Source: Candidatus Helarchaeota archaeon
GTDB lineage: Archaea > Asgardarchaeota > Lokiarchaeia > Helarchaeales > RDOG01
NCBI GenBank assembly: GCA_019058315.1
Contig: JAHPZH010000004.1
Span: 96,001-160,000 of the forward strand
Reading direction: 5' to 3'
DNA: 64,000 nucleotides
Part shown: in pieces, positions 19,188 to 30,172 of the stretch
Position numbering within the stretch: the stretch's first letter is position 1
Layout: each line of letters opens with the position of its first letter
The notes under the pieces: generated by a model
Databases searched by the model: none
What the model was told of the DNA's origin: nothing
The model's input: the letters and a program-made list of their open reading frames with translations, nothing else
Translations under genes and position numbers: made by a program

Positions 19188-20642
19188 ATGATTAGGGGTA
19201 AGTTGTTTATGCCGGAAGATAAGAATTCAATAATTAAAAGGATAAGGGATGTATGTGAAAAAAAAAGAAAAGAATTTATAGAAATATTTACTAAATTTAT
19301 AGAAACACCTTCAATATCTGCTTGGAAAGAGCCAGAAACGCTTTATAAAATTGTTGAAAAAGCAAAAACTTTATTAAAATCATGTGCTGTATCTACAATT
19401 ATCCATGATGAATATGATTCCAATTATCCATTGTTAACCGGTGAAACCAATTCTTCTGAGGCCACAAAATCAAAAAAAATCTTTTTTTTAGGTCATTTAG
19501 ACGTCCAACCTCCTGGCGAAATTGAAAAATGGACAAAACTTTCAGATCCTTTTAAGCCCCTACAAAAAGAAGGCAAACTATATGGGAGAGGTAGTTTGGA
19601 TACAAAATCACAAATTTCTGCACAAATTATTGCGCTTAAGATTCTAAATGAATTAAAAATCAAGATTAAAGCGCTTGATTTCTTGTATACTACCGATGAG
19701 GAAATTGGTTCATTAAAATCAACGTTAAAATTTTTTGAGAAATTATCAAAAAATAAATTCGATACAAATGATTATCATGGTGCAATTAACGGAGAAAATA
19801 CAAATGAACGTATTGTTTTAGGCTGCAAAGGAATCATTAAATTGAAATTTATTGCAAAAAACCCTCTTGGAAGGATGCATTCAGGAAAATCAATGTTTCA
19901 CGCTTATCATCCAATCATAAATTTAGCAGAATTTCTCTCTAAAATACGGAATGAAAATAAAATTCTTATTGAGAAATTAAATTTATTGAATCCAAAAATT
20001 AGAATTATCAAGGATAAAGATTTAGTAAATAAAAAATATGAAAATACTAATGAAATACTGCTTTCTGAAAACGGGTTAAAGTTAGCTGTAGGTTCAAAAT
20101 TATGGGATGATTTTATCTCTGCTGGATGGAGTACTGAACAGATCGGAGAGAAATTTGCGTCAATTAGCTTTAATCCTGATAATTTTCTATCCGGAAGCAA
20201 GGAAAGTCAAACTATAGTTCCAGACGAAGCTATATCCGAGGTAGATATACGAATTCCACCTAAAATAGCCCCAACCAAAATAATAGAAATATTAAAACAA
20301 ATAACTGACCAATTTCCTTATATTACTATGGAAATTATTATGCCAAATTCTTCTGATATTAATAAATATTTTCAAGGTGCATTCACATCTCCAGCAAATC
20401 CCTTTGTTCAAAAATTCTACCAGAATTGTATGTTTGTATATGATCAGCCTAGAATTTTTATGCCATTTAGCTCAGGTACAAGTGATGACCGATTTATAGA
20501 AGTATTAGGGCTCCCACACGTGAAGTTTGGTGCTACAGGTCAAAATAACCATGGATACGATGAATGGGTTGATTTATCAAGTTTTTTTCGTGTTATTCAA
20601 GTTTACACGTTAATGATGGCAGATTTAGAATTAGATCAATAA
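19188..20642 (+). CDS. M20/M25/M40 metallo-hydrolase (ArgE/DapE/dipeptidase-like)
   Basis: GHLDVQP, YGRGSLD.K, DEEIGS, NHGYDE metal-binding motifs. Confidence 0.9.
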   Translation: MIRGKLFMPEDKNSIIKRIRDVCEKKRKEFIEIFTKFIETPSISAWKEPETLYKIVEKAKTLLKSCAVSTIIHDEYDSNYPLLTGETNSSEATKSKKIFFLGHLDVQPPGEIEKWTKLSDPFKPLQKEGKLYGRGSLDTKSQISAQIIALKILNELKIKIKALDFLYTTDEEIGSLKSTLKFFEKLSKNKFDTNDYHGAINGENTNERIVLGCKGIIKLKFIAKNPLGRMHSGKSMFHAYHPIINLAEFLSKIRNENKILIEKLNLLNPKIRIIKDKDLVNKKYENTNEILLSENGLKLAVGSKLWDDFISAGWSTEQIGEKFASISFNPDNFLSGSKESQTIVPDEAISEVDIRIPPKIAPTKIIEILKQITDQFPYITMEIIMPNSSDINKYFQGAFTSPANPFVQKFYQNCMFVYDQPRIFMPFSSGTSDDRFIEVLGLPHVKFGATGQNNHGYDEWVDLSSFFRVIQVYTLMMADLELDQ

Positions 20643-20671: not shown

Positions 20672-22054
20672 TTAATTAGTTTTATTAATAGGTAAATATT
20701 TGTCCCATTGATTAAATGACAGTATTTCATCATATTTATTACAAATTATATTAAAAATCTGACATGTTGCACAAAATATATCGACTATATCTTCATCGTT
20801 TAAATCAAGAATTTTGAGAATTTCAGGAGAGATCCCCCAAGCTCTTTCAAAGTCAACTCCCCAATCACCACATATATTTACAACAAATTCATCCTTTGTA
20901 AATTTGCCTGTATGAGGAGCTTTTGCTATACGTATACTTCCTCCCACTGGAACAATATTTCCATCTTCTTGAACTACATTAATTCGGAGATCAAATGTCC
21001 TCTTTGAATTTTTCCAATTAATTAATTTGAATTGAGCCATTTCCTGGATAGTATATGGAAAAGGATTTCGTGATGTATTAAATTTTTGATGAAAATCAGA
21101 AATTGAATCTTCAATTATTTTTGGAATTTGTTGGATAGGGGTATTTGTAATAAAAGGTTTAATTCCAGCACCACCTGAACCTCCAAATGGTTTTAAAACA
21201 AAATTCTTATTCATATTGTTAATCGATTTCATTATTTCTTCAAGTTTGTTTTTAGAAAACACTCTTGCAAATATAAGGGGGTGAATTCGATATTTTTCTA
21301 AAATATCGTATCCCATGTATATGGCTACATATGTACTTGCCTTATCATCAGTCACAGGATAAATTGGATTAATAATTTTAGTTTTAATGCCTCTCCAATT
21401 GTCCTTTTGAAAATCTTTATCAGGGAATCTTCTTACAATACCATCTCCGATAAGAACATGTATTTTATCATCTAAAAACGTAAAATATTGATTTTTATAA
21501 TCCAAAAATTCAAATAAATTTTGATAATTAGAATAAATTAAGATAATATCATCAATACTTTTTTGTGGGTTATTATAATTGAAAATATTATATATTCCTA
21601 CTCTAATTCCCTCTTTCTTATACATATATCTCAAATACTCGCCTAACATAATTTTTTCTTGATAAAGGTCGTCTTTAGGTAAGGTTCCTATGAGTACTCT
21701 TTTCTGCTTAACACCATTAATATTGTCTATTGCACTCTTAAAGGCATTAAAAATCATTTCTATCTGATCAAATGTAGTAGCGAAGAGTCCTCTTGTGGAA
21801 CCTCCATTAGTTTCTAAAATTACGAATTTCCTTTGATTATTATGTTCTGTAACCATAAAATCGACAGAGCCTACATAGAATAATCTTTTATCAGGAAGTC
21901 TCGGCCAATTGCCCATTTTTTTTAGAGCTTTTTCACGAATCTGATCTACAAACTTATTATCTTGCTTTTGTCGTGTTGGTTCTAATGAGGTTAAATCTTT
22001 ATCAAAATATTTAGATAAATGAATGATACGATCTAATTCGTTTTTTAAATTCAT
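20672..22054 (-). CDS. Circularly permuted ATP-grasp ligase (TTL/YheCD-like motifs)
   Basis: N-terminal VDFMV...ILETN; later DDK, VLKPFGGSGGAGI, IQE, FDLR, RIA...VVN. Confidence 0.72.
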   Translation of the reverse strand: MNLKNELDRIIHLSKYFDKDLTSLEPTRQKQDNKFVDQIREKALKKMGNWPRLPDKRLFYVGSVDFMVTEHNNQRKFVILETNGGSTRGLFATTFDQIEMIFNAFKSAIDNINGVKQKRVLIGTLPKDDLYQEKIMLGEYLRYMYKKEGIRVGIYNIFNYNNPQKSIDDIILIYSNYQNLFEFLDYKNQYFTFLDDKIHVLIGDGIVRRFPDKDFQKDNWRGIKTKIINPIYPVTDDKASTYVAIYMGYDILEKYRIHPLIFARVFSKNKLEEIMKSINNMNKNFVLKPFGGSGGAGIKPFITNTPIQQIPKIIEDSISDFHQKFNTSRNPFPYTIQEMAQFKLINWKNSKRTFDLRINVVQEDGNIVPVGGSIRIAKAPHTGKFTKDEFVVNICGDWGVDFERAWGISPEILKILDLNDEDIVDIFCATCQIFNIICNKYDEILSFNQWDKYLPINKTN

Positions 22055-22096
22055 AAACCCACCATTTTTATTAGATTTTAAGGACCAAAAAATATT

Positions 22097-23305
22097 CTAA
22101 ATTTTTAAGACGTATTGAGGGATTAAACGTGCTAAAATATCGGCCATACCTAGCTCAACAGTCTTTAAGACAACACCCTTGCCTCGATAATCAAATTCCA
22201 TCTCTCGCACTTCGGAACAAATTTTGCTACCAACATCATTTGCCATATCTAAGATAAAATATCGTTCTCCTTTAATCTGAATTACTTCAACTACATTAAC
22301 AACGTCTGAAAATGAATAACCCCCACCATGAGGTGCAATATTAAGATTTTTCAGTCTATTTAAGACCCCTATTTTTTCTGCTCGTTTTTCAAATCCCAAT
22401 AGTTCGATTATTTCATCATCTAAATTTGGTTTACCCGTCATTAAAAATGCTGGTAAATCAGCTCTTAATGCTATAGGAAAGGGACTTGAATTTGCATCAC
22501 TAATATCATGGGCACCAAGCATTAATTCATTATAATTTAAAAGACCTTGATGTGTAATATTATTAATTATTTTATATTTTCCAAAAATTGCTTCTGCAGC
22601 CAATTTTCTTTTTTCTTTAGCGAACCATTCAGCATATTTATAAAAATTATAATATTCTTTAACATCTGAATCGATTAAAACATGTAATTTTCCAAAAATT
22701 GTTTTAACTATTTTTGCTCGTTCTCGGAGAGCTTCACTTTTATCAAAGTATAATCCTATTCCCTTCTCTGTTTCATTACGTAGTTCTGATACCGATCCAT
22801 GCATAATAAATGCATATTCTGGTAAATCTACATCTAGGGAGCGTTTAACAACCTTAAATAAGTCAATAAAATGATTCCCCTTATACATATCCCATTCAAT
22901 TTTAAAATTATCTATATATAAATCTTTTTTAACTTCATGAATTGCTTCAATTAATTCAGAGGGCTTTGGAAGTTCCTCTAAAGCTCCAACTAACATCCCA
23001 CAAGCATTAGGTTTACTGTCTAAAATTATAAATTTATCCTTTCCAGAACCCCAAGATAGTTTTCCTCCATAGCCAAATCCCGCTTTCCAACGTGCAGTAT
23101 TTCGGGTTATAGTTTCGTCAGGAGTTGAAACGAAAGTGGCGTGTGGTGAAAAACCAAATTCTTCTTGTGCCAAATGAATTTTTGCCAAGCCATACTTCAT
23201 GTTCGCTCGGCATAAATAAGAAGCTCCATCACCTACTCCAGTAGAAAAATAATGTCTTTTTGCCCGTTTTAATAATTCAGTCTTCTCTAAACTTACAAGT
23301 GTCAT
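22097..23305 (-). CDS. Divergent RtcB-family GTP-dependent ligase
   Basis: Ordered RtcB-like motifs PD..GFGYGG, NACG, GNHF, MHGS, THQ, PHGGG, terminal ARLIP..VLK. Confidence 0.75.
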   Translation of the reverse strand: MTLVSLEKTELLKRAKRHYFSTGVGDGASYLCRANMKYGLAKIHLAQEEFGFSPHATFVSTPDETITRNTARWKAGFGYGGKLSWGSGKDKFIILDSKPNACGMLVGALEELPKPSELIEAIHEVKKDLYIDNFKIEWDMYKGNHFIDLFKVVKRSLDVDLPEYAFIMHGSVSELRNETEKGIGLYFDKSEALRERAKIVKTIFGKLHVLIDSDVKEYYNFYKYAEWFAKEKRKLAAEAIFGKYKIINNITHQGLLNYNELMLGAHDISDANSSPFPIALRADLPAFLMTGKPNLDDEIIELLGFEKRAEKIGVLNRLKNLNIAPHGGGYSFSDVVNVVEVIQIKGERYFILDMANDVGSKICSEVREMEFDYRGKGVVLKTVELGMADILARLIPQYVLKI

Positions 23306-23329
23306 ATAAAGATCTATCCTTTTGAATAT

Positions 23330-23911
23330 TTAAAAAATTTCCAATTGATTCTTAAGCTCTATTAAATAATTTTTAATAATTTTTGAATTTAATTCCACAA
23401 ATTTCTTAGCTTTATTACTATAAAAATTTGGAATTTCGTTAATACGCCATTCTAACTTTTTAATCATACAATCAAAATCTTTTTTTCGTAAGGCACAAGA
23501 TAACAAGGCTCTCATCAATCCTATAGGACCGAAAAGATCCATACCATCTGCATCATATAAGACTTTTGCTTCCAAACTTTCAGGTTTTTTTTCAGCATAT
23601 TGTCTACTATGGCATAAAATACAGTCTGTAATTTTTTTTATTGTATTTTTGTCAATTCCTTTCGATAATAATATTTTTTCAGTCATTTCGGCACTAATTA
23701 CATTATGCTTAGTACGATCAATCTTATGTCCAATATCATGTAACAATATGGAACATTGAATTATATCCCAGTCAGCATTAACTTCTTTATTTATCATCAA
23801 AGCATATTTTAATAATCTTTCAATATGCGGCCATCCATGTAAGATATCTTTCGGCATATTTTCTATTGCAAACTTTTTGACTTCTGGAATTAATTTATTT
23901 ATATTAATCAT
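23330..23911 (-). CDS. HD-domain phosphohydrolase
   Basis: HG..H..R, LLHDIG, H...SA, CH, LYDAD.MD..G..G. Confidence 0.9.
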   Translation of the reverse strand: MININKLIPEVKKFAIENMPKDILHGWPHIERLLKYALMINKEVNADWDIIQCSILLHDIGHKIDRTKHNVISAEMTEKILLSKGIDKNTIKKITDCILCHSRQYAEKKPESLEAKVLYDADGMDLFGPIGLMRALLSCALRKKDFDCMIKKLEWRINEIPNFYSNKAKKFVELNSKIIKNYLIELKNQLEIF

Positions 23912-23921
23912 CGTGATTTTA

Positions 23922-25535
23922 CTAATTTAAATTAATCCAATATTGACCCATTAATTGCGAAGAATTTGTTTTTACAAGTACTTTATTGACTTCTACAAGT
24001 CCATCTTCATAACAATCAATGACATTATATGTGTTCAGATCCATATCCAAATAATCTCTAGAAGATAAAGTGCCACAAGTTGAAAATACTGTATCTTCCA
24101 ATTGAATTGAAAAAGAGATATGATTATGACCTGTAAGAATAAAATGAATATTATTTTCTGGTTCTGTAAAAAATTTTATTACATTTCCTGCATCACTTAA
24201 CATATAATTAAATTTGGTTTTTGGATGGGGAATTAAATTATGATATAAAGCTACGATATTAATTTTATTTTTGGGTTTTTCTTTGAATATTTTAATTACT
24301 TCATTCATTCTTTTTCTACCTATAATCCCACTCTCAATTGCAGGATCTATAGAATTTATACCAGCAATTCTTATTTTATCATTCTCATAAAAAGGTTCTA
24401 AAGTTCCAATAAATTCTGGAAATAAATCCCAGCCGATCGTTTTTAAATCATTATCCCCTGGAATTATAATCTTATGTGCCATAATTTTATCTAATTCTGC
24501 TACAGCTTTCTTATATTCAACATATTGATTAGCATTAGTAACATCCCCCGTGTGAACAACAAGATCAGCATTTAATGTATTTATTTGTTTAACAGCCTTT
24601 TTATACATATCTTCTCTAAAATTGCCAGAAGAGAAATGTGTATTACCAATATGCGCTATTCTAAAATTTAATTTCTTATCAAATTTTGGGGGTGTTGGAT
24701 AAAAAACTCTATTTATATATCTTCCCCGTTTTATTCTCTCCCCATTAATTAATTTTTTAGTTCTAAATAACACTGCCTTTTCAAAAATATCTAAAATAGT
24801 ATAAGTAAATAATTCCTTATATCGGGTTTTATTGCAAGAAAATGTTCCGCCGTTAAACATCACCAATTCTTCTTCGCCATCTGAACATGAATAAACATTA
24901 GAAATATGTCGATGCCCATTTAATATTAGATCAATATTAGTTTCCAAAATCATTTTTAAAGCATCACCACTGTCAATTACAGCAGATCTTTCACGTCCAG
25001 TTAGCGGAATAGGCAATAAATGGTGGTGAAAACAAAAAATTCTAGTCTTATCGGAATTATTTAAAAATTGTTCTCGAGTTTTTTCAATAGCCCTCCTACC
25101 AATTTTTCCAGAATCTTGATCCGGGATAGAACTATCAATTCCTATTATTAAAAGATCTTTTTCGTCAATTTTAAACGTCCTGGAATCAAAAAATTCTTCA
25201 AAAAGCAAATAACCAACGTTCTTTGCGTCGTGATTCCCTGGGATACAAAAAAATATATCTTTATTGATTGGTTTTAATAATTCTAAAGCATATTGATAAT
25301 CTAAATAGGTTCCACCGTGTGTTAAGTCTCCTAAATGTATTATATAATCCACTTTTTTAATTTTATTTATTTCCTCAATACCTTTATTATATATCTCCAA
25401 ATTAAAAATAGGACTATTTGAAATATGTGAATCTGAAATTAAAATAATTCTTTTTGGTTTACCTTCTAATGGAACTGAATCTATTTTCTTCTTATAACGT
25501 GCATAATGGGGAAAATATTTAGTATTAATCTTCAT
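23922..25535 (-). CDS. Tandem two-domain calcineurin-like (CpdA/Icc-type) metallophosphoesterase
   Basis: Domain 1 SDSH/GDLT/PGNHD/HHH/GHRH; domain 2 GNTH/GDVT/PGDND/YHN/GHNH. Confidence 0.9.
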   Translation of the reverse strand: MKINTKYFPHYARYKKKIDSVPLEGKPKRIILISDSHISNSPIFNLEIYNKGIEEINKIKKVDYIIHLGDLTHGGTYLDYQYALELLKPINKDIFFCIPGNHDAKNVGYLLFEEFFDSRTFKIDEKDLLIIGIDSSIPDQDSGKIGRRAIEKTREQFLNNSDKTRIFCFHHHLLPIPLTGRERSAVIDSGDALKMILETNIDLILNGHRHISNVYSCSDGEEELVMFNGGTFSCNKTRYKELFTYTILDIFEKAVLFRTKKLINGERIKRGRYINRVFYPTPPKFDKKLNFRIAHIGNTHFSSGNFREDMYKKAVKQINTLNADLVVHTGDVTNANQYVEYKKAVAELDKIMAHKIIIPGDNDLKTIGWDLFPEFIGTLEPFYENDKIRIAGINSIDPAIESGIIGRKRMNEVIKIFKEKPKNKINIVALYHNLIPHPKTKFNYMLSDAGNVIKFFTEPENNIHFILTGHNHISFSIQLEDTVFSTCGTLSSRDYLDMDLNTYNVIDCYEDGLVEVNKVLVKTNSSQLMGQYWINLN

Positions 25536-25960
25536 TTTTCTAAGTAGTAATTTTGATTATTTTAAGGTAATTAAGAATTATTTTATATAAATTAATTGCT
25601 AATAACTCTCTTAAATTTTATTTCTGAAAATAAAATTTCAAAAAATTGTTAATTTAAATTAGGTACAATTAAAGGTTCCTTTAATTAAATGAAATATTTG
25701 AATAGATTTTCTCATTTAACGTTAAAATTTTGTGTTCATCTCAGTTGAATTAAAAATCTATTTTATTAAATATGGATCATACTTTTAAGTTATTCTAACA
25801 TTTTATTAATAGTCTAACTATTATCTGTTAAAATGTCAAAGCTTATTCAGTACAAAAATAAGTCCAAAAATCAGATTATTTTAAACTTATTTTTAAACTA
25901 TTTACTTTATAAAAAAATCGTTATTTTTAACACATAAGTAAAAATGGAGTAGAAAAATAT

Positions 25961-26035
25961 ATGTCCAAGAAAAAAAAATCAAAAGGAAAATCTAAAAAAC
26001 AAGCGTCAAAGAACAAAAGTAAAGAAACTAAATAA
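25961..26035 (+). CDS. Putative 24-aa Lys-rich micropeptide MSKKKKSKGKSKKQASKNKSKETK
   Basis: ATG with GGAG at 25946-25949 and TTTATA box upstream, isolated in a long intergenic region. Confidence 0.45.
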   Translation: MSKKKKSKGKSKKQASKNKSKETK

Positions 26036-26298
26036 ATAGAAAATACAAAAACGGGATAAAACAAAAGAAAATATTTTTTTACCAAACCTTTTTCTTTATA
26101 TTTCAAAAATTTAACAAATAATAAATGGAAAATTCTTGTTTTTTGTTTATGCTTAAAAAAATAAGATAAAATACTTCCAAAATAAGAAAATTCTTTTTTG
26201 AACAAAATATTTTATTTCTAATTGATTTCTTTTATTAATCACAATTAGTTATATCAAAATTGAAGATTCTCTATAATTCTTATAAAGTGAGTTCCTAA

Positions 26299-27129
26299 AT
26301 GCCATTAGCCAGTGTAATTTTTTATTTTTCACAGCAAGGTAGTACTAAAAAAATTGCTGAAAAAATTGCAGAAGGTTTAAACCAAGGAGAAAACAGATGT
26401 GAGTTAGTAAGATTCACTAAGCTTACAAAAGATTTGGAAATGATTAAGAATTTCGATTTTTCAAAATATAGTCTAATTGGTTTTGGAACACCCGTTTATT
26501 ATTTTTACCCTCCACATCATCTATTCAAAGTTTTTGAGTCTCTACCTGATTTAAGTCATGTAAATGGTTTTCTTTTTTGTACTAGTGGGGGTAATCCTGG
26601 GGCTTGTTTGTATAAGATAAAAAATATTCTTGATAAAAAAGGATTTAAAATAATTGATGGCTATGATAAATGGATCGGACTCGATCAACACCGTTGTTAT
26701 AGTCATTTTAAAGAATCGGCACTTCCTTCAAGTTTGGGACATCCGAATCCAGGAGAACTTGCTGAGGCAAAAGAATTTGGTAAAAATTTAATTCATAAAA
26801 CCCTTGATCCAAATTCACCAGAAAAAAAGGATTTTTGGTCAAAAGATAATAAATGGGCAGAAGGGGGATGGAAGGGAAGATCCGAACCGTTTATGGAGAA
26901 ATGGTTCCCAGAATTTAAGCTGAATGAAGAAAAATGTACTCAATGTGGTAAATGTGCTGAATTATGTCCTGTTGATGCGATTGTTTTAGATCCATACCCT
27001 CAATGGGTGAAAGATTGTGATCGGTGTTATTTGTGTGATCTTTACTGCCCTGAGCAAGCAATTGAATGTGACTGGTCTAAACAATGTGCATTTATGGATA
27101 ATATATTAAAAAGAGCTAAAAAGAAATGA
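26299..27129 (+). CDS. Flavodoxin-ferredoxin fusion (EFR1 family)
   Basis: YFSQQGST flavodoxin motif; CTQCGKCAELCP and CDRCYLCDLYCP 4Fe-4S motifs. Confidence 0.9.
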   Translation: MPLASVIFYFSQQGSTKKIAEKIAEGLNQGENRCELVRFTKLTKDLEMIKNFDFSKYSLIGFGTPVYYFYPPHHLFKVFESLPDLSHVNGFLFCTSGGNPGACLYKIKNILDKKGFKIIDGYDKWIGLDQHRCYSHFKESALPSSLGHPNPGELAEAKEFGKNLIHKTLDPNSPEKKDFWSKDNKWAEGGWKGRSEPFMEKWFPEFKLNEEKCTQCGKCAELCPVDAIVLDPYPQWVKDCDRCYLCDLYCPEQAIECDWSKQCAFMDNILKRAKKK

Positions 27130-27172: not shown

Positions 27173-28060
27173 TTATTGACCTGTATCAATATATTGCGTT
27201 TTAAATCCTTCTTCACTCCCATATATATTTAAATAAACGTCTTTAATAAATTCTTTCTTATATTTAAAAATTAGATTTGGATCATCTGTAAGTAAGACAA
27301 AATCCATTCTAATATGTGATAGAACATCACTAACATAGTATTCCGGGGAATAATTTAATAATTTTTCATATTTTTTACAAATTTCATCTAATTTTTGGAC
27401 GGTTTTAGCTGGGTTTTTTTTAGGAAGATCTAGAACAAACCAATATCTTGTAATTTCTTTTTTAAAGAAAATATCTTTAAATTTTTCCTTATCTGCAGTT
27501 TTTAGCATATCTTTTGTAATTGTAAAATTAATTATTTCAGCATTGATTATTGATAAATTAGAAATCATATGTACAGCTCCAGAAGGTCTTCTTAATTTCG
27601 TATAATTTAAACTCACTCCTTCAACAATTCCCTCTTGATTCATTATTTGTATAAGATCTCCTAATCTATAAGGTCTCGTGAATAATATGTATAAACCAGC
27701 AATAAAATTCTGTAAAATAGTAGTTGTTGAAAAAGCAATTATTGAACCTGTGATTGCCGAAATTAAAATTGCGACCTCTGGAGGAAGCCCTCCAGGTACT
27801 AAACTAGCTGATGCAGCAGTAAATAAAATAACTATAAAAATAATAATCGCCAAACGAAATATTATTTTTATACCATTATAAAGATGTAAAGAAAATTTCT
27901 TTCTTATTATAACTTTTTTAATAATGAATAGTATTATTGTAGAAATTATTAAAACTGCTACAACAATTATAGTGAAATATATCCAAGAAACCAAATAATC
28001 CCAAAATGTTGGAGGAGGAAAGATACGAACTGTAAAAAGTTGAGAGATCCATTCAAACAT
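27173..28060 (-). CDS. MscS-family mechanosensitive channel protein
   Basis: Three TMs, LQNFIAG...RPYRLGDLIQI...G.V..V.L.YT. Confidence 0.85.
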   Translation of the reverse strand: MFEWISQLFTVRIFPPPTFWDYLVSWIYFTIIVVAVLIISTIILFIIKKVIIRKKFSLHLYNGIKIIFRLAIIIFIVILFTAASASLVPGGLPPEVAILISAITGSIIAFSTTTILQNFIAGLYILFTRPYRLGDLIQIMNQEGIVEGVSLNYTKLRRPSGAVHMISNLSIINAEIINFTITKDMLKTADKEKFKDIFFKKEITRYWFVLDLPKKNPAKTVQKLDEICKKYEKLLNYSPEYYVSDVLSHIRMDFVLLTDDPNLIFKYKKEFIKDVYLNIYGSEEGFKTQYIDTGQ

Positions 28061-28948
28061 TTATTTGGAACCTCCACTTTTTTCATATACGGAAAACCAG
28101 ATATCTTTTTTAAATTCTGGTAATAAATCCATAGCAGTATTCATGTCTTCTGAAGATATTATCATCCTAATAGTTAATCGCCAATATATATTTGCAAAAA
28201 CATATCTAGGTTTATGTCCAAATTTTGAGACCCATCGTTCACAGACTTCATCTAAAATCCTTATTAAATCCTTTGGATTTTTATCAAGTTCAAATTCCAT
28301 AAGGAAAAAATAATATGAAATTTTTCTTTTTTGAATGGCTTTAATTAAAGTTTTTTTTATTTTCTCTTTTTTTGAGACTTCGAATGCTTTAATATCTTCT
28401 TCATAAACCGTTTTATAATTTAATAAATTTGCATTCATGGCAACTTTATTTGGAATTTTATGAATATTACCAATCCCGACTGTATCCCTTAAAATTGTGT
28501 AGTTCATACCTATTTCAGTTACAAAACCTTCAATTTCTCCTATTTTTATAAAATCTCCTACACTATAAGGTCTAGAACCTATCATAAAAAATCCAGCAAT
28601 AAGGTTACCAACTATGATTGCACTCGCAAGACCTATTGCCGTTGAAAAGATTGTCGTAAAATTCATCAACGTTTCATAATCCATAATACCAAGTGTGACT
28701 AAAACAGAAAATAGCACTATGAAAATTACAATCATCCTAATGAAATTAAGAAAACCACTAAATGCCTCATGCGGGAATTTTCGGGTCTTTTTAAATGATC
28801 TCTTAATAATATAACCCGTAATTTCTACAGATAATAGAATAGTAACGGCTATCACTATTACAAGAAATAAATTACTAATGAAATCATAATAAACTCTTTT
28901 GTTTATTTCATCATATAATGCTATAATTTGATTTATATCAACTGCCAA
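28061..28948 (-). CDS. MscS-family mechanosensitive channel protein (paralog)
   Basis: GNLIAG...RPYSVGDFIKIG..EG.V..IG..YT, IPN; GGAGG RBS before TTG. Confidence 0.85.
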   Translation of the reverse strand: MAVDINQIIALYDEINKRVYYDFISNLFLVIVIAVTILLSVEITGYIIKRSFKKTRKFPHEAFSGFLNFIRMIVIFIVLFSVLVTLGIMDYETLMNFTTIFSTAIGLASAIIVGNLIAGFFMIGSRPYSVGDFIKIGEIEGFVTEIGMNYTILRDTVGIGNIHKIPNKVAMNANLLNYKTVYEEDIKAFEVSKKEKIKKTLIKAIQKRKISYYFFLMEFELDKNPKDLIRILDEVCERWVSKFGHKPRYVFANIYWRLTIRMIISSEDMNTAMDLLPEFKKDIWFSVYEKSGGSK

Positions 28949-29104
28949 TTTTAAGTATCCTCCGACTTCAAGATTTTAATTAAAATTAAAAAATTTGCCT
29001 GAAATTGAGATAAGATATAATGAATAGCTATTTAAATGGTTATATAATTTTAAAATAAGAAAATGGATATATAAAGTATAAACATTATATTAAAAGGCGA
29101 TTAT

Positions 29105-30172
29105 ATGCCTAGATTCTTTAGAAAAATTAAAAAAAAAGTAGGGAATCCTCCTGGGACTCTTATATATACAGGTGAAAAAAGAGACGAAAAAATTAAGGTA
29201 AAAATGATTGAATACAATGATTCTGACTACAATGAAAAAGAAATTGAAGAAAATTTAATTGATAAATGTCTGACTTTTAAAGATACTAAAGAAATCTCAT
29301 GGTTGAATATTGAGGGAATCCATAAATTAGAAATAATTGAAAAAATTGGAAATTATGTAAAAATACATCCTTTGGTTTTAGAAGACATAGTGAATGTTAA
29401 TCAACGTCCAAAGATAGAAAACTTTGATGATTACATATATTTGATTCTTAAGATTTTAGATTATGATGAAAATAAAAATGAGGTTATATTAGAGCAAATT
29501 AGTATTATTTTTAGTTCAAATTATGTAATTACTTTTAGAGAAAAATCATCTGAACTATTCAATCCTATTATAAATAGAATCCGGACAAAAAAGGGGCAAA
29601 TTCGGAAAATGGGAACAGACTATCTTGTTTATTCTCTAATTGATATAGTCATAGATTATTATTTTTTAATATTAGAAAATATTGGAGAAAAGATTGAGGA
29701 TATGGAGGCAGAATTAGTAACAAACCCTACAGAAAGTACTTTACAAAATATTCATCAAATGAAAAGGGGACTATTAACTTTAAGAAGATCAATTTGGCCT
29801 TTAAGAGAAGTAATTAACCGTTTATTGAGAAGAGAATTACCATTTATTCATGAGGAATCGAATCTATATTTTAGAGATCTTTATGATCATACAATTCAAA
29901 TAATTGATACTATAGAAACACTAAGAGACATACTTTCTGGGATGCTTGATATTTATCTATCAAGTGTTAGCAATAAAATGAACGAAGTTATGAAAGTTCT
30001 TACTGTTATTGCAACAATTTTTATCCCTTTAACATTTTTAACTGGGATATTCGGTATAAATTTTATTGCTTTGCCAAATATTTACTGGGAAGGAATCATT
30101 ATAACTCTAGTTGCAATGTTGATTGTTACAATTTTTATGGTAATATACTTTAAAAGAAAGAACTGGTTGTAA
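29105..30172 (+). CDS. corA: Magnesium/cobalt transporter CorA
   Basis: G.PPGTL, HPLVLED, QRPK, MNEVMKVLT, GIN signature (GMN variant), two C-terminal TMs. Confidence 0.95.
   Translation: MPRFFRKIKKKVGNPPGTLIYTGEKRDEKIKVKMIEYNDSDYNEKEIEENLIDKCLTFKDTKEISWLNIEGIHKLEIIEKIGNYVKIHPLVLEDIVNVNQRPKIENFDDYIYLILKILDYDENKNEVILEQISIIFSSNYVITFREKSSELFNPIINRIRTKKGQIRKMGTDYLVYSLIDIVIDYYFLILENIGEKIEDMEAELVTNPTESTLQNIHQMKRGLLTLRRSIWPLREVINRLLRRELPFIHEESNLYFRDLYDHTIQIIDTIETLRDILSGMLDIYLSSVSNKMNEVMKVLTVIATIFIPLTFLTGIFGINFIALPNIYWEGIIITLVAMLIVTIFMVIYFKRKNWL

Follow-up and report, generated by a model that had tools for sequence, protein, structure and literature searches.

Related systems

Bacterial RNA repair cassettes such as Pnkp/Hen1, RtcA-RtcB and HD-Pnk combine a ligase with HD or calcineurin-like phosphoesterase modules. 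In the 3'-phosphate/5'-OH RNA ligase RtcB, the Phe of the GNHF motif, the Tyr of the AYK motif and the C-terminal Lys touch the nucleotide; Myxococcus RtcB3 caps 5'-phosphate ends. Activation by guanosine also underlies the synthesis of F420 (CofC/CofD) and of cobamides (CobY or CobU with CobS), where activation turns a phosphomonoester into R-O-P-P-guanosine, and the phosphodiester forms when a hydroxyl displaces the GMP. In the F420 pathway, amide ligases then attach glutamates.

Here we describe a cluster of four genes in the window, a 64,000-nt stretch of a Candidatus Helarchaeota archaeon contig. The cluster resembles the repair cassettes in its set of ligase and phosphoesterase modules, but it lacks a polynucleotide kinase, methyltransferase, cyclase and Archease, its ligase is a non-canonical RtcB relative, and an amide ligase is added to the set. 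We favour, with a probability of about 0.4, the reading that it encodes a small-molecule phosphoester/phosphodiester pathway.

Organization of the locus

Four open reading frames, all on the minus strand, occupy positions 20672-25535 of the window. Their coordinates match exactly those of the original prediction, which had described four co-oriented genes separated by 10 nt (genes 1/2), 24 nt (genes 2/3) and 42 nt (genes 3/4) and preceded by a long intergenic region; this cluster observation is confirmed. The very AT-rich upstream region (25536-26298, 763 nt) presumably holds the promoter of the cluster, and the nearest upstream open reading frame with a family match, a flavodoxin/Fer4 gene on the plus strand, starts at 26299. 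At about 45-55 nt upstream of the first ATG (25535) stands a TTTATATAAAA box, although boxes of this type are common in DNA of 26% GC. An Rfam search of the 763-nt region returned no family at threshold. Shine-Dalgarno-like motifs stand shortly 5' of the ATG of gene 3 (AGGA) and, inside the 42-nt gap, of gene 4 (GGTGG); past the gene 3 stop comes a T6 run. The four-gene arrangement is more than chance, since many other genomes also group these families together.

An RtcB fold outside the known family

Gene 3 (22097-23305) encodes a 402-aa protein of a family without annotation, here called X. Searches of Pfam, NCBIfam, PADLOC and PDB sequences gave no match to it, the RtcB HMM PF01139 gave nothing at E <= 1, and we found no publication on the family in the literature. 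The AF2 model (pLDDT 93), in contrast to these sequence libraries, retrieved RtcB as each of its top 16 Foldseek matches, and VIA aligned it over 299-318 residues with Z 20-22.7 and rmsd 3.1-3.4 A, the next unrelated chain reaching only 5.4. The predicted fold is thus unmistakably that of RtcB (P. horikoshii 1UC2/4DWQ, T. thermophilus 2EPG, human RTCB 7P3B), shared along the whole protein over some 310 residues, and the earlier description of a divergent RtcB proves right at the level of fold.

The likeness extends to the active site. X carries the Cys of P-N-A-C-G, G-N-H-F, H-G-S, T-H-Q, the His of P-H-G-G-G, and a Tyr ahead of the C-terminus together with a penultimate Lys. In hhalign, GNH145F pairs with GSGNHF of RtcB, H169GS with IHTGS, PH326GGGY with AHGAGR, Y373 with the AYK Tyr and K401 with the C-terminal Lys, so that the residues aligned with the three nucleotide-touching positions are all retained. 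C102, H145, H169, H252 and H326 are invariant in the family, its most divergent clade included. Archaeal and bacterial members are at least 50% identical, and the Cys and four His belong to 56 columns invariant among 34 sequences.

X also departs from RtcB in several respects. It is about 80 residues shorter; an invariant Tyr replaces the Arg of the H-G-A-G-R motif; and no residue of X could be mapped to the Asp that serves RtcB as a metal ligand. The family is acidic (mean pI 6.7, net charge -3), whereas Asgard RtcB is basic (pI 8.5, +6). A profile search of 1.84 billion representatives reached 340 clusters and no canonical RtcB, which the genome carrying X encodes as well, as do 41 of 41 sampled Asgard genomes. 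The partners differ likewise, being HD, MPE, GDPD and ATP-grasp genes and not Archease or RtcA.

The partner enzymes

Gene 1 (23922-25535, 537 aa) encodes a tandem metallophosphoesterase, MPE, that matches PF00149 in two stretches (2.2e-27). The best named matches of its N-terminal domain are CpdA and GpdQ: NCBIfam gives CpdA at 1.7e-18 and SpdA at 3e-10, both under their cut-offs, and GpdQ (2zo9, 1.5e-6) is the nearest solved structure. Like the class III phosphodiesterases (CpdA, Rv0805, GpdQ), this domain carries all five metallophosphoesterase motifs, D35-x-H37, G69-D70, G100-N-H-D103, H170-H171 and G207-H-R-H210, invariant in 22 Asgard homologs. MPE differs from those enzymes in its tandem build, in a second domain that has lost metal ligands and in scores far under the equivalog cut-offs. 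The C-terminal domain here has N-x-H and G-D-N-D, and its metal ligands vary across the family. To judge from these motifs, the N-terminal domain is an intact, CpdA/GpdQ-like enzyme and the C-terminal one is degenerate throughout the family; the dual phosphoesterase first proposed is borne out as a tandem protein in which the N-terminal domain alone keeps the catalytic motifs. The MPE family is mostly Asgard, with a few copies in Spirochaetales.

Gene 2 (23330-23911, 193 aa) encodes a small HD-domain phosphohydrolase, as had been proposed, with a Pfam match to PF01966 (2.5e-10). Its nearest solved relatives are 5dqv (6.4e-11), the YpgQ of B. subtilis, and YedJ (3gw7); YpgQ is an NTP pyrophosphohydrolase (PMC8177086). 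Across 25 HD partners of X, H25, H29, H58-D59, H101, D120 and D122 are invariant.

Gene 4 (20672-22054, 460 aa) encodes an ATP-grasp carboxylate-amine ligase, AG, present in one copy in this genome. Its Pfam matches are weak (YheCD; ATPgrasp_ST at 4.5e-5, 23 bits against a cut-off of 31.4). The AF2 model (pLDDT 86) matches 3k1t, YjfC, homoglutathione and human glutathione synthetase and GspS over its full length (Z 13-15.8), whereas the classical ATP-grasps LysX/ArgX, Ddl and TTL align only from residue ~115 (Z 11-12.8). Two stretches of AG are invariant: L80-E81-x-N83-G-G-S86, close to its N-terminus, and K288-P-x-G-G-S-G-G. A circularly permuted ATP-grasp, as originally suggested, is consistent with its closest matches by fold (eukaryotic-type glutathione synthetase, GspS, 3k1t, 3n6x) and with the N-terminal E-x-N-G-G; given the position of E-x-N in human glutathione synthetase, the permuted arrangement is expected to place this motif near the N-terminus. 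The resemblance to the wider group (eukaryotic-type glutathione synthetase, GspS, YjfC/YgiC, permuted 3K1T/3N6X; Z 12.6-15.8) comprises the ATP-grasp core and E-x-N-G-G, but identity is just 10-16% and Pfam scores fall under cut-off. Unlike GspS, AG has no fused amidase domain, and a separate M20 or 378-aa gene adjoins it instead.

At this locus the adjoining gene is a convergent ArgE/DapE-like M20 deacylase (19188-20642, plus strand, 484 aa; PF01546 8.9e-24, NCBIfam ArgE/DapE subfamily 1.1e-38, under cut-off), whose end lies 29 nt from the gene 4 stop. The same arrangement, with a protein 55% identical, occurs in a Lokiarchaeota MAG (L003), and beyond these two loci it did not recur. The deacylase is possibly an accessory amidase to AG.

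Linkage of the four families

The most constant partner of X is the HD gene, which lies near X at 31 of 85 loci and immediately adjoins it at 29, in Asgard archaea, Bathyarchaeia, Chloroflexota, Spirochaetota, Clostridia, Planctomycetota and Desulfobacteria. By coordinate comparison and inspected loci, tandem MPE adjoins an X-family gene or lies within about 2.5 kb of one in 14 of 201 sampled Asgard genomes, from four families; in Bathyarchaeia MPE stands beside X-HD (L012), and both MPE and X are present in families f2, f20, f5, f14, f22, f23, f25 and f26. AG genes that adjoin X fall into three separate clades of their tree, among them a deep bacterial one whose operons are tight (at L081, X-HD-HD-AG spaced by 3, 30 and 9 nt; at L085, X-AG spaced by 15 nt). 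Homologs of these families therefore do adjoin elsewhere. Other Lokiarchaeia keep all four families together in altered order (L113, AG-378aa-MPE-HD-X; L115 similar), but the exact four-gene order is limited to close Lokiarchaeia relatives. In the sister family f2, X, MPE and AG occur in 37-38 of 40 genomes dispersed on different contigs; tight linkage of the three is therefore not required.

We favour one functional island around the two-gene core of X and HD. It is rather unlikely, by our estimate, that the locus instead joins two separate modules, MPE-HD-X and AG with its deacylase (M20 here, the 378-aa gene elsewhere), the latter pair making and removing an amide and lying near X through lineage-specific synteny and not a shared pathway. 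Such a division would suit the 36 f2 genomes that hold both AG and X on different contigs, the many phyla that contain X as against an AG found, within the 201 Asgard genomes, only in this one and in f2, the follower gene of 378-401 aa that stays with AG at L113, L115 and L059, the MPE-HD-X loci without AG (L004, L007) and the T6 run after X. It fits poorly with X-AG adjacency in three AG clades, including Chloroflexota operons with gaps of 9-15 nt, with the single island that Lokiarchaeia retain despite shuffling, and with the GGTGG ribosome-binding site in an X/AG gap just 42 nt long.

Substrate of X

A non-RNA substrate is favoured because canonical RtcB is already present in the genome and in sampled Asgard archaea, because X is acidic and has lost the H-G-A-G-R Arg to Tyr, and because of the company that its family keeps. 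Two independent assemblies carry a fusion of X with an APH-type small-molecule kinase, within a biosynthetic cluster that includes two radical-SAM enzymes, an aminotransferase, an SDR and HAD phosphatases. The paralog X2 sits between tandem MPE and a GDPD glycerophosphodiesterase at 7-9 loci; X3 comes after a gamma-glutamyltranspeptidase; X4 has a GT4-like gene on one side and a run of NTP-transferase, CDP-alcohol phosphatidyltransferase and myo-inositol-1-phosphate synthase on the other. These contexts, the APH fusion included, belong to paralogous subfamilies and not to X1 orthologs. GDPD flanks HD-X at three Asgard loci, and c-di-AMP riboswitches (98-105 bits) lie upstream of X at three bacterial loci.

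Observation covers the folds, the conservation of catalytic residues and the repeated linkage of the genes; the nucleotide used, the class of substrate and the role of each partner we infer. X would keep the chemistry of RtcB: Cys and His would hold a metal centre, and an active-site His would accept an NMP, probably GMP. It would pass the GMP to a phosphomonoester to give an R-O-P-P-G intermediate, from which a hydroxyl would displace GMP to form a phosphodiester. In place of an RNA end, the substrate would be a small alcohol or polyol that carries a phosphate, for example one from which a solute, a cofactor or a lipid head group is made. The YpgQ-like HD enzyme would cleave a nucleotide-diphosphate-type bond, perhaps to remove the activated intermediate or to trim the product; MPE would open or recycle the phosphodiester or a cyclic phosphate; AG would ligate a carboxylate of this metabolite to an amino acid or amine; and the M20 deacylase may take off the group so added. 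The activation logic is that of F420 and cobamide synthesis as a chemical analogy only, as those pathways use folds unrelated to X and two separate enzymes and form no covalent His-GMP, and nothing found here links the cluster to either cofactor. If true, a small-molecule role of X, which related clusters elsewhere suggest, would put RtcB chemistry to a new use.

Several observations count against this small-molecule reading. The modelled fold and active site of X belong to an RNA ligase, the Asp metal ligand of RtcB has no mapped counterpart in X, and HD and metallophosphoesterase domains have precedents as RNA 3'-end-healing enzymes (HD-Pnk, Pnkp). The island at L113 is placed between EF-1alpha and rpS10; other X loci adjoin GluRS and ribosomal-protein genes or ProRS-NusA-IF2, and some stand beside DNA-repair-type genes (PolX; an EndoQ-like PHP protein). 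The f2 dispersal of X, MPE and AG and the origin of the supporting contexts in paralogs weigh in the same direction.

A nucleic-acid end-healing and sealing module is unlikely by our estimate but still a serious rival. Like RtcB, X would join 3'-phosphate or 2',3'-cyclic-phosphate ends of RNA (or DNA) to 5'-OH ends, here on a specialised target; MPE and HD would process cyclic-phosphate, phosphate or abortive 3'-ppG ends; and AG would modify a partner that is a protein or is linked to RNA. The RtcB fold of X, its catalytic Cys and His and its H-G-x-G histidine agree with this, as do the likeness of the MPE N-domain to cyclic-nucleotide phosphodiesterases, among them the 2',3'-cNMP enzyme SpdA, the action of the HD relative YpgQ on nucleotides, the neighbourhoods with translation genes, PolX/THEP1 or an EndoQ-like gene and the existence of RtcB paralogs with changed end specificity. 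Yet canonical RtcB is already universal in the sampled phylum; Archease, RtcA, P-loop polynucleotide kinase and Hen1 are absent from the annotated recurrent neighbour clusters of X; the end that RtcB requires would be destroyed by a 3'-phosphatase; X is acidic overall and has Tyr for the Arg; and the kinase fusion, GDPD, inositol-phosphate, gamma-glutamyl and riboswitch contexts are not what RNA repair would predict. The original prediction, which had offered either RNA repair with a peptide-tagging step or a pathway for a GMP-activated metabolite, is thus partly supported: the former is the less supported, and a GMP-activated phosphodiester metabolite would fit the wider family context better. 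It is highly improbable that X is a catalytically dead or structural RtcB relic in a cluster without joint function, since its invisibility to sequence libraries, unmapped Asp and lost Arg are outweighed by its identity between archaea and bacteria, a Cys and four His invariant even in the most distant clade, partners conserved across domains and riboswitch control at the three bacterial loci.

Organization of the Gene Cluster

The original prediction described a candidate operon of four co-oriented genes with gaps of 10, 24 and 42 nt behind a long intergenic region, a layout that ORF calling confirmed. All four genes lie on the minus strand of the window (20672-25535): a tandem metallophosphoesterase (MPE; 23922-25535, 537 aa) is followed by a YpgQ/YedJ-like HD phosphohydrolase (HD; 23330-23911, 193 aa), an RtcB-fold protein that we call X (22097-23305, 402 aa) and a glutathione-synthetase/GspS-like ATP-grasp ligase (AG; 20672-22054, 460 aa). 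The gene of an ArgE/DapE-like M20 deacylase (19188-20642, plus strand) converges on AG, with 29 nt between the two stops. Upstream of the cluster, 763 nt of very AT-rich DNA precede the nearest gene with a family match. The motifs GGTGG and AGGA stand just 5' of the start codons of AG and X, respectively; together with the common strand and the short gaps, they make the cluster a candidate operon. A T6 run downstream of the X stop codon could attenuate transcription. Rfam returned no family at threshold in the window, the upstream gap included.

The host is an Asgard genome of 5.8 Mb in 12 contigs, with a GC content of about 28%, and the nearest relatives of the cluster proteins carry Lokiarchaeota, Promethearchaeota or Hodarchaeota MAG labels. 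Within the AT-rich gap, and divergent from the cluster, lies a Lys/Ser-rich small ORF of 24 codons (window ~25960-26035, plus strand). Its position is not conserved, because the equivalent gap of the related locus L003 measures only 234 nt, and the ORF is probably just a consequence of the A-rich sequence. Less than 2 kb from the same gap are osmotic and ion genes, namely two tandem genes of MscS-type mechanosensitive channels (minus strand), after which comes the gene of a CorA Mg2+ transporter (window 27173-30172).

X Is Related to RtcB Ligases

Sequence comparison alone hardly connects X to any named family. No match was found in Pfam, NCBIfam (E <= 1), PADLOC or PDB sequences, the PDB searches with X and with AG giving chance matches only, and a profile of 34 X sequences reached Pyrococcus horikoshii RtcB at no better than E 0.35. 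More than 1,200 homologs exist, none of them named; with identities of 50% or more, they range from Asgard archaea to the Planctomycetota, Chloroflexota, Spirochaetota and Clostridia. The structure model built from the 34 sequences (pLDDT 93) is far more telling: the first 16 chains retrieved by Foldseek are all RtcB, and VIA aligns 299-318 residues with RtcB over model residues 8-402 (Z 20-22.7, rmsd 3.1-3.4 Å), the next unrelated chain scoring Z 5.4. By this model, the only strong structural relatives of X are RtcB ligases, and the earlier assignment as a divergent RtcB is borne out by a predicted RtcB fold of the whole protein despite the lack of a PF01139 match.

Profile-profile alignment with Asgard RtcBs (hhalign) is weak overall (E 0.05) and yet places the motifs in register. 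The G-N-H145-F of X aligns with RtcB G-S-G-N-H-F, H169-G-S with H-T-G-S, P-H326-G-G-G-Y with A-H-G-A-G-R, Y373 with the tyrosine of A-Y-K, and K401 with the C-terminal lysine. In RtcB, the H-G-A-G-R motif carries the guanylylated histidine; X retains half of this signature, since His326 is kept and invariant while the arginine is replaced by an invariant Tyr330. The residues that contact the guanine nucleotide in RtcB, i.e. the GNHF phenylalanine, the AYK tyrosine and the C-terminal lysine, have aligned counterparts in F146 and K401, both invariant, and in the nearly invariant Y373. C102, H145, H169, H252 and H326 show no variation, not even in A4, the most divergent clade. The first four correspond to the Cys and three His metal ligands of RtcB (C98, H203, H234 and H329 in the P. 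horikoshii enzyme), and the set is kept in clades A1 and A4; for C102 and H252, the pairing is based on the order of the motifs because the N-terminal alignment lacks confidence, neither the global nor the N-terminal hhalign run being trustworthy.

X also departs from RtcB in several respects. It is about 80 residues shorter and more acidic (mean pI 6.7, compared with 8.5 for Asgard RtcB), and the alignment does not map the Asp ligand of RtcB onto it. Unlike the D-x-x-C of RtcB, X reads K-P-N-A-C, with no Asp at position -3 of the cysteine; at -2 stands the invariant N100, with D96 close by, in a region where the N-terminal alignment carries no confidence. Canonical RtcB is encoded separately, both in the host genome (582 bits) and in 41 of 41 Asgard genomes sampled. 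Among 1.84 billion cluster representatives, the X profile gathered 340 clusters and did not reach RtcB, which argues for a discrete sister family and against a fast-evolving ortholog. Judged from its sequences, X is such a sister family of RtcB, with the predicted catalytic core retained.

Four loci of the most distant X clade came out of a metagenome scan; three are too short to show neighbours, and the fourth, L137, has further ORFs along 7 kb downstream. Two contigs titled Deferrimicrobium (L007) and Deltaproteobacteria (L009) bear X copies 71-72% identical to that of the window, and L007 also has Lokiarchaeia-type MPE and HD genes beside X; both contigs are probably mis-binned.

Partner Enzymes

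The HD protein matches PF01966 at 41 bits (cut-off 22), and the metal motif H...HD...D is invariant (H29, H58-D59, D120/D122), in agreement with its original naming as a putative HD hydrolase. Its closest solved relatives are Escherichia coli YedJ and Bacillus subtilis YpgQ (5dqv, 6.4e-11), the latter a Mn-dependent (d)NTP pyrophosphohydrolase (reviewed in PMC8177086). A complex prediction of X with HD scored 0.00, which gives no verdict and counts neither for nor against an interaction.

MPE had been proposed as a dual phosphoesterase. Two Metallophos (PF00149) stretches are indeed present in Pfam searches, but catalytic motifs are kept in the N-terminal domain only. This domain shows all five (D-x-H, G-D, G-N-H-D/E, H and G-H-x-H), invariant in 22 Asgard homologs. 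The C-terminal domain lacks them, reading N-x-H and G-D-N-D in the window protein, and its ligands differ from one family member to another; judging by the sequences, MPE probably has a single active site, the second domain being degenerate. The top named matches of MPE are the cyclic-nucleotide phosphodiesterases CpdA and SpdA, far under their cut-offs, and among solved structures it matches the glycerophosphodiesterase GpdQ. The family comprises about 300 proteins, almost all of them from Asgard archaea and a few from Spirochaetales.

AG gives sub-threshold Pfam matches confined to residues 232-378 (ATPgrasp_ST, 23.2 bits against a cut-off of 31.4; YheCD, 15.8 against 26.8). Its structure model (pLDDT 86) matches at full length (Z 12.6-15.8) eukaryotic-type glutathione and homoglutathione synthetases, GspS, YjfC/YgiC, and 3k1t and 3n6x, both of which are structures described as circularly permuted ATP-grasp. 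Over model residues 2-446, the scores are Z 15.8 for 3k1t, 14.7 for YjfC, 14.3 for homoglutathione synthetase and 13.7 for human glutathione synthetase; classical ATP-grasps align over residues ~115-443 only. In classical enzymes an E-x-N Mg site closes the domain, and in human glutathione synthetase permutation places this site early. AG carries the sequence L80-E81-T-N83-G84-G85-S86 near its N-terminus, invariant in 33 homologs. These full-length matches to the permuted group and the early E-x-N make the earlier call of a permuted ATP-grasp ligase a reasonable one for the modelled protein.

Recurrence of the Gene Set

In order to survey the neighbourhood, ORFs were called and neighbours clustered in 85 X loci (80 from reference genomes and five from other look-ups) in addition to the window. 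HD is by far the commonest neighbour of X, being present in 31 of the 85 loci and directly adjacent in 29, whether upstream, downstream or divergent, and HD-X loci span Asgard archaea, Bathyarchaeia, Chloroflexota, Spirochaetota, Clostridia, Planctomycetota and Desulfobacteria. MPE and AG recur beside X as well, so that the neighbourhood conservation which the original prediction had proposed as a check was found. Tandem MPE adjoins HD-X in four close Lokiarchaeia relatives, a Bathyarchaeia locus is arranged X-HD-MPE, and two further Asgard loci have MPE near X. L003 has the gene order of the window, convergent M20 included. AG appears in an uncultured archaeon as X-PvlArgDC-DHS-AG (DHS, deoxyhypusine synthase) and in the Chloroflexota operons X-HD-HD-AG (L081; gaps of 3, 30 and 9 nt) and X-AG (L085; gap of 15 nt). 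In the AG tree, X-adjacent members are spread over three distinct clades, among them the bacterial clade that branches deepest. Other Lokiarchaeia loci keep the gene set in shuffled order: in L113 (479-9897) an island AG-378aa-MPE-HD-X interrupts a conserved archaeal translation cluster, sitting between its EF-1alpha and rpS10 genes, and in L115 and L116 AG-380aa lies a few kb upstream of MPE-HD-X-rpS10. No additional hidden members of the HD, MPE or AG families were found among the X-locus neighbours.

A census of 201 Asgard genomes matched X in 81 and tandem MPE in 88, each across many families, and eight families hold both. In 14 of the 201 genomes, which belong to four families, an X-family gene either adjoins MPE or lies no more than ~2.5 kb away. 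AG is matched in 38, i.e. the window genome and 37 of the 40 genomes of family f2, in which X, MPE and AG are all present yet on separate contigs. Taken together, the survey and the census thus indicate a real recurrent association, in which the X-HD core is firm and MPE and AG are looser. That the cluster consists of two modules which are merely adjacent is a less likely reading than a joint pathway; the separate contigs of f2 would fit it, and the return of AG beside X in three AG clades speaks against it.

Genomic Contexts and Possible Substrates

Several contexts bear on the substrate of X. An X domain is fused to an APH-type small-molecule kinase in a 743-aa protein (L117:7001-9232), and in a second, independent assembly the fusion has 748 aa; its cluster encodes two radical-SAM enzymes, an aminotransferase, an SDR and HAD phosphatases. 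The Asgard paralogs of X are equally instructive. X2 (7-9 loci) is flanked by the tandem MPE family and a GDPD glycerophosphodiesterase. X4, a second X-family copy of family f2 genomes (L118:6847-13200 and L119), overlaps a GT4-like gene; next come genes for an NTP-transferase, a CDP-alcohol phosphatidyltransferase and myo-inositol-1-phosphate synthase, the set that serves inositol-phosphodiester synthesis. X3, from family f23 (L124:4666-9249 and three sister loci), comes after genes for an S9 (prolyl-oligopeptidase-family) peptidase and a gamma-glutamyltranspeptidase; a Ras-like GTPase gene is also found near it. GDPD likewise flanks HD-X in three loci of the X orthologs (X1).

In three bacterial loci, c-di-AMP riboswitches (98-105 bits) precede X (L046:5813-5943, L050:6638-6767 and L061:4747-4877), and Rfam gave no match on 12 more bacterial X-HD loci. 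Genes under riboswitches of this class usually concern osmolytes, potassium and the envelope. A HEAT-repeat gene stands between riboswitch and X in two of the three loci; the idea, drawn from DHS neighbours, that it is deoxyhypusine-hydroxylase-like was rejected, as it has no His-Glu pairs.

These contexts, together with the RtcB already present in the same genomes and the fact that none of the annotated recurrent neighbour clusters is Archease, RtcA, polynucleotide kinase or Hen1, point to a substrate other than RNA. We therefore put forward, at a probability of about one in three, that the X family applies RtcB histidine-GMP chemistry to small molecules. It would act as a soluble GTP-dependent phosphodiester synthase, or as a ligase processing cyclic phosphates, on polyol or alcohol phosphates, and with HD it would offer archaea and bacteria of sediments a way, not recognised before, of making phosphodiester-linked solutes, cofactor side chains or lipid head groups, the product being further amidated in the Lokiarchaeia lineage of the window by the glutathione-synthetase-like ligase.

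The same observations weigh on the alternative of RNA or DNA repair, which we regard as less likely but as a live rival. The RtcB fold of X itself speaks for repair, HD and MPE domains have precedents in RNA end healing, and X loci are repeatedly near translation genes. PolX/THEP1 lies downstream of X in Planctomycetota, and in Clostridia and Aerophobetes X is followed by c38, a 412-aa protein (L052:8193-9431, also L056, L066 and L077) with an N-terminal PHP-like motif D-F-H-V-H-S and a C-x-x-C zinc ribbon, whose one Pfam match is PHP_C at 0.03; by eye, c38 looks EndoQ-like, and this Clostridia gene also counts for repair. Repair is opposed, however, by the constant presence of canonical RtcB, by the APH fusion, by the GDPD, inositol and gamma-glutamyl contexts of the paralogs, by the c-di-AMP riboswitches and by the missing end-healing partners among the annotated neighbours. 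Tests of c38 as a relative of AG, X or RtcB showed it to be none of these.

Proposed Mechanism and Significance

Under the small-molecule reading, X would nucleotidylate itself on His326, activate a phosphomonoester and join the activated phosphate to a hydroxyl with release of NMP. HD would hydrolyse a bond of the nucleotide-diphosphate type, in the activated intermediate or in the product, and MPE would open or recycle a phosphodiester or cyclic phosphate. AG would add an amino acid or amine, which M20, or elsewhere the 378-aa gene product, may remove again. The scheme as a whole is tentative, its odds being somewhat short of even.

No enzyme class other than RtcB is known to use histidine-GMP for joining a 3'-phosphate to a 5'-hydroxyl, and RtcB is regarded purely as an RNA (occasionally DNA) ligase. 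X adds a sister family, unnamed in annotation libraries, whose partners are phosphodiesterases, a nucleotide pyrophosphohydrolase-like HD protein and amide ligases. If the family acts on metabolites, RtcB chemistry reaches beyond nucleic acids, and a function could be assigned to a gene set conserved in Asgard archaea, Bathyarchaeia and anaerobic sediment bacteria; if it repairs RNA, it represents a second, specialised sealing system alongside the universal RtcB. Under both readings, the recurring partners are concrete proteins for expression and assay. A non-exhaustive literature search returned no paper on the X family or on the MPE-HD-X-AG combination, consistent with the initial view that this is not a described system, and X is an RtcB-superfamily enzyme with a probably different substrate within an undescribed gene set.

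Other Neighbours

PvlArgDC and deoxyhypusine synthase occur near X in Asgard archaea and divergently in eight Planctomycetota loci; they hint at a loose connection with amine metabolism, which a GspS-like ligase would fit. PADLOC matched the cluster weakly and generically, so no defence system is suggested, and the CHAT protease and MalT-like NTPase neighbours of P0441 were uninformative. M20 was rejected as a general partner, since its conservation is limited to L003, apart from a weak M20-like gene close to a single X2 locus, and the 378-aa AG follower has faint AstE/ArgE-like matches. A trio for which tblastn found no homolog in the window, consisting of a lysine-2,3-aminomutase-like radical-SAM gene between two Ddl-like ATP-grasp genes, adjoins MPE-HD-X in three Lokiarchaeia relatives (L003:12990-15212, L004:1-3786 and L115:2035-4970).
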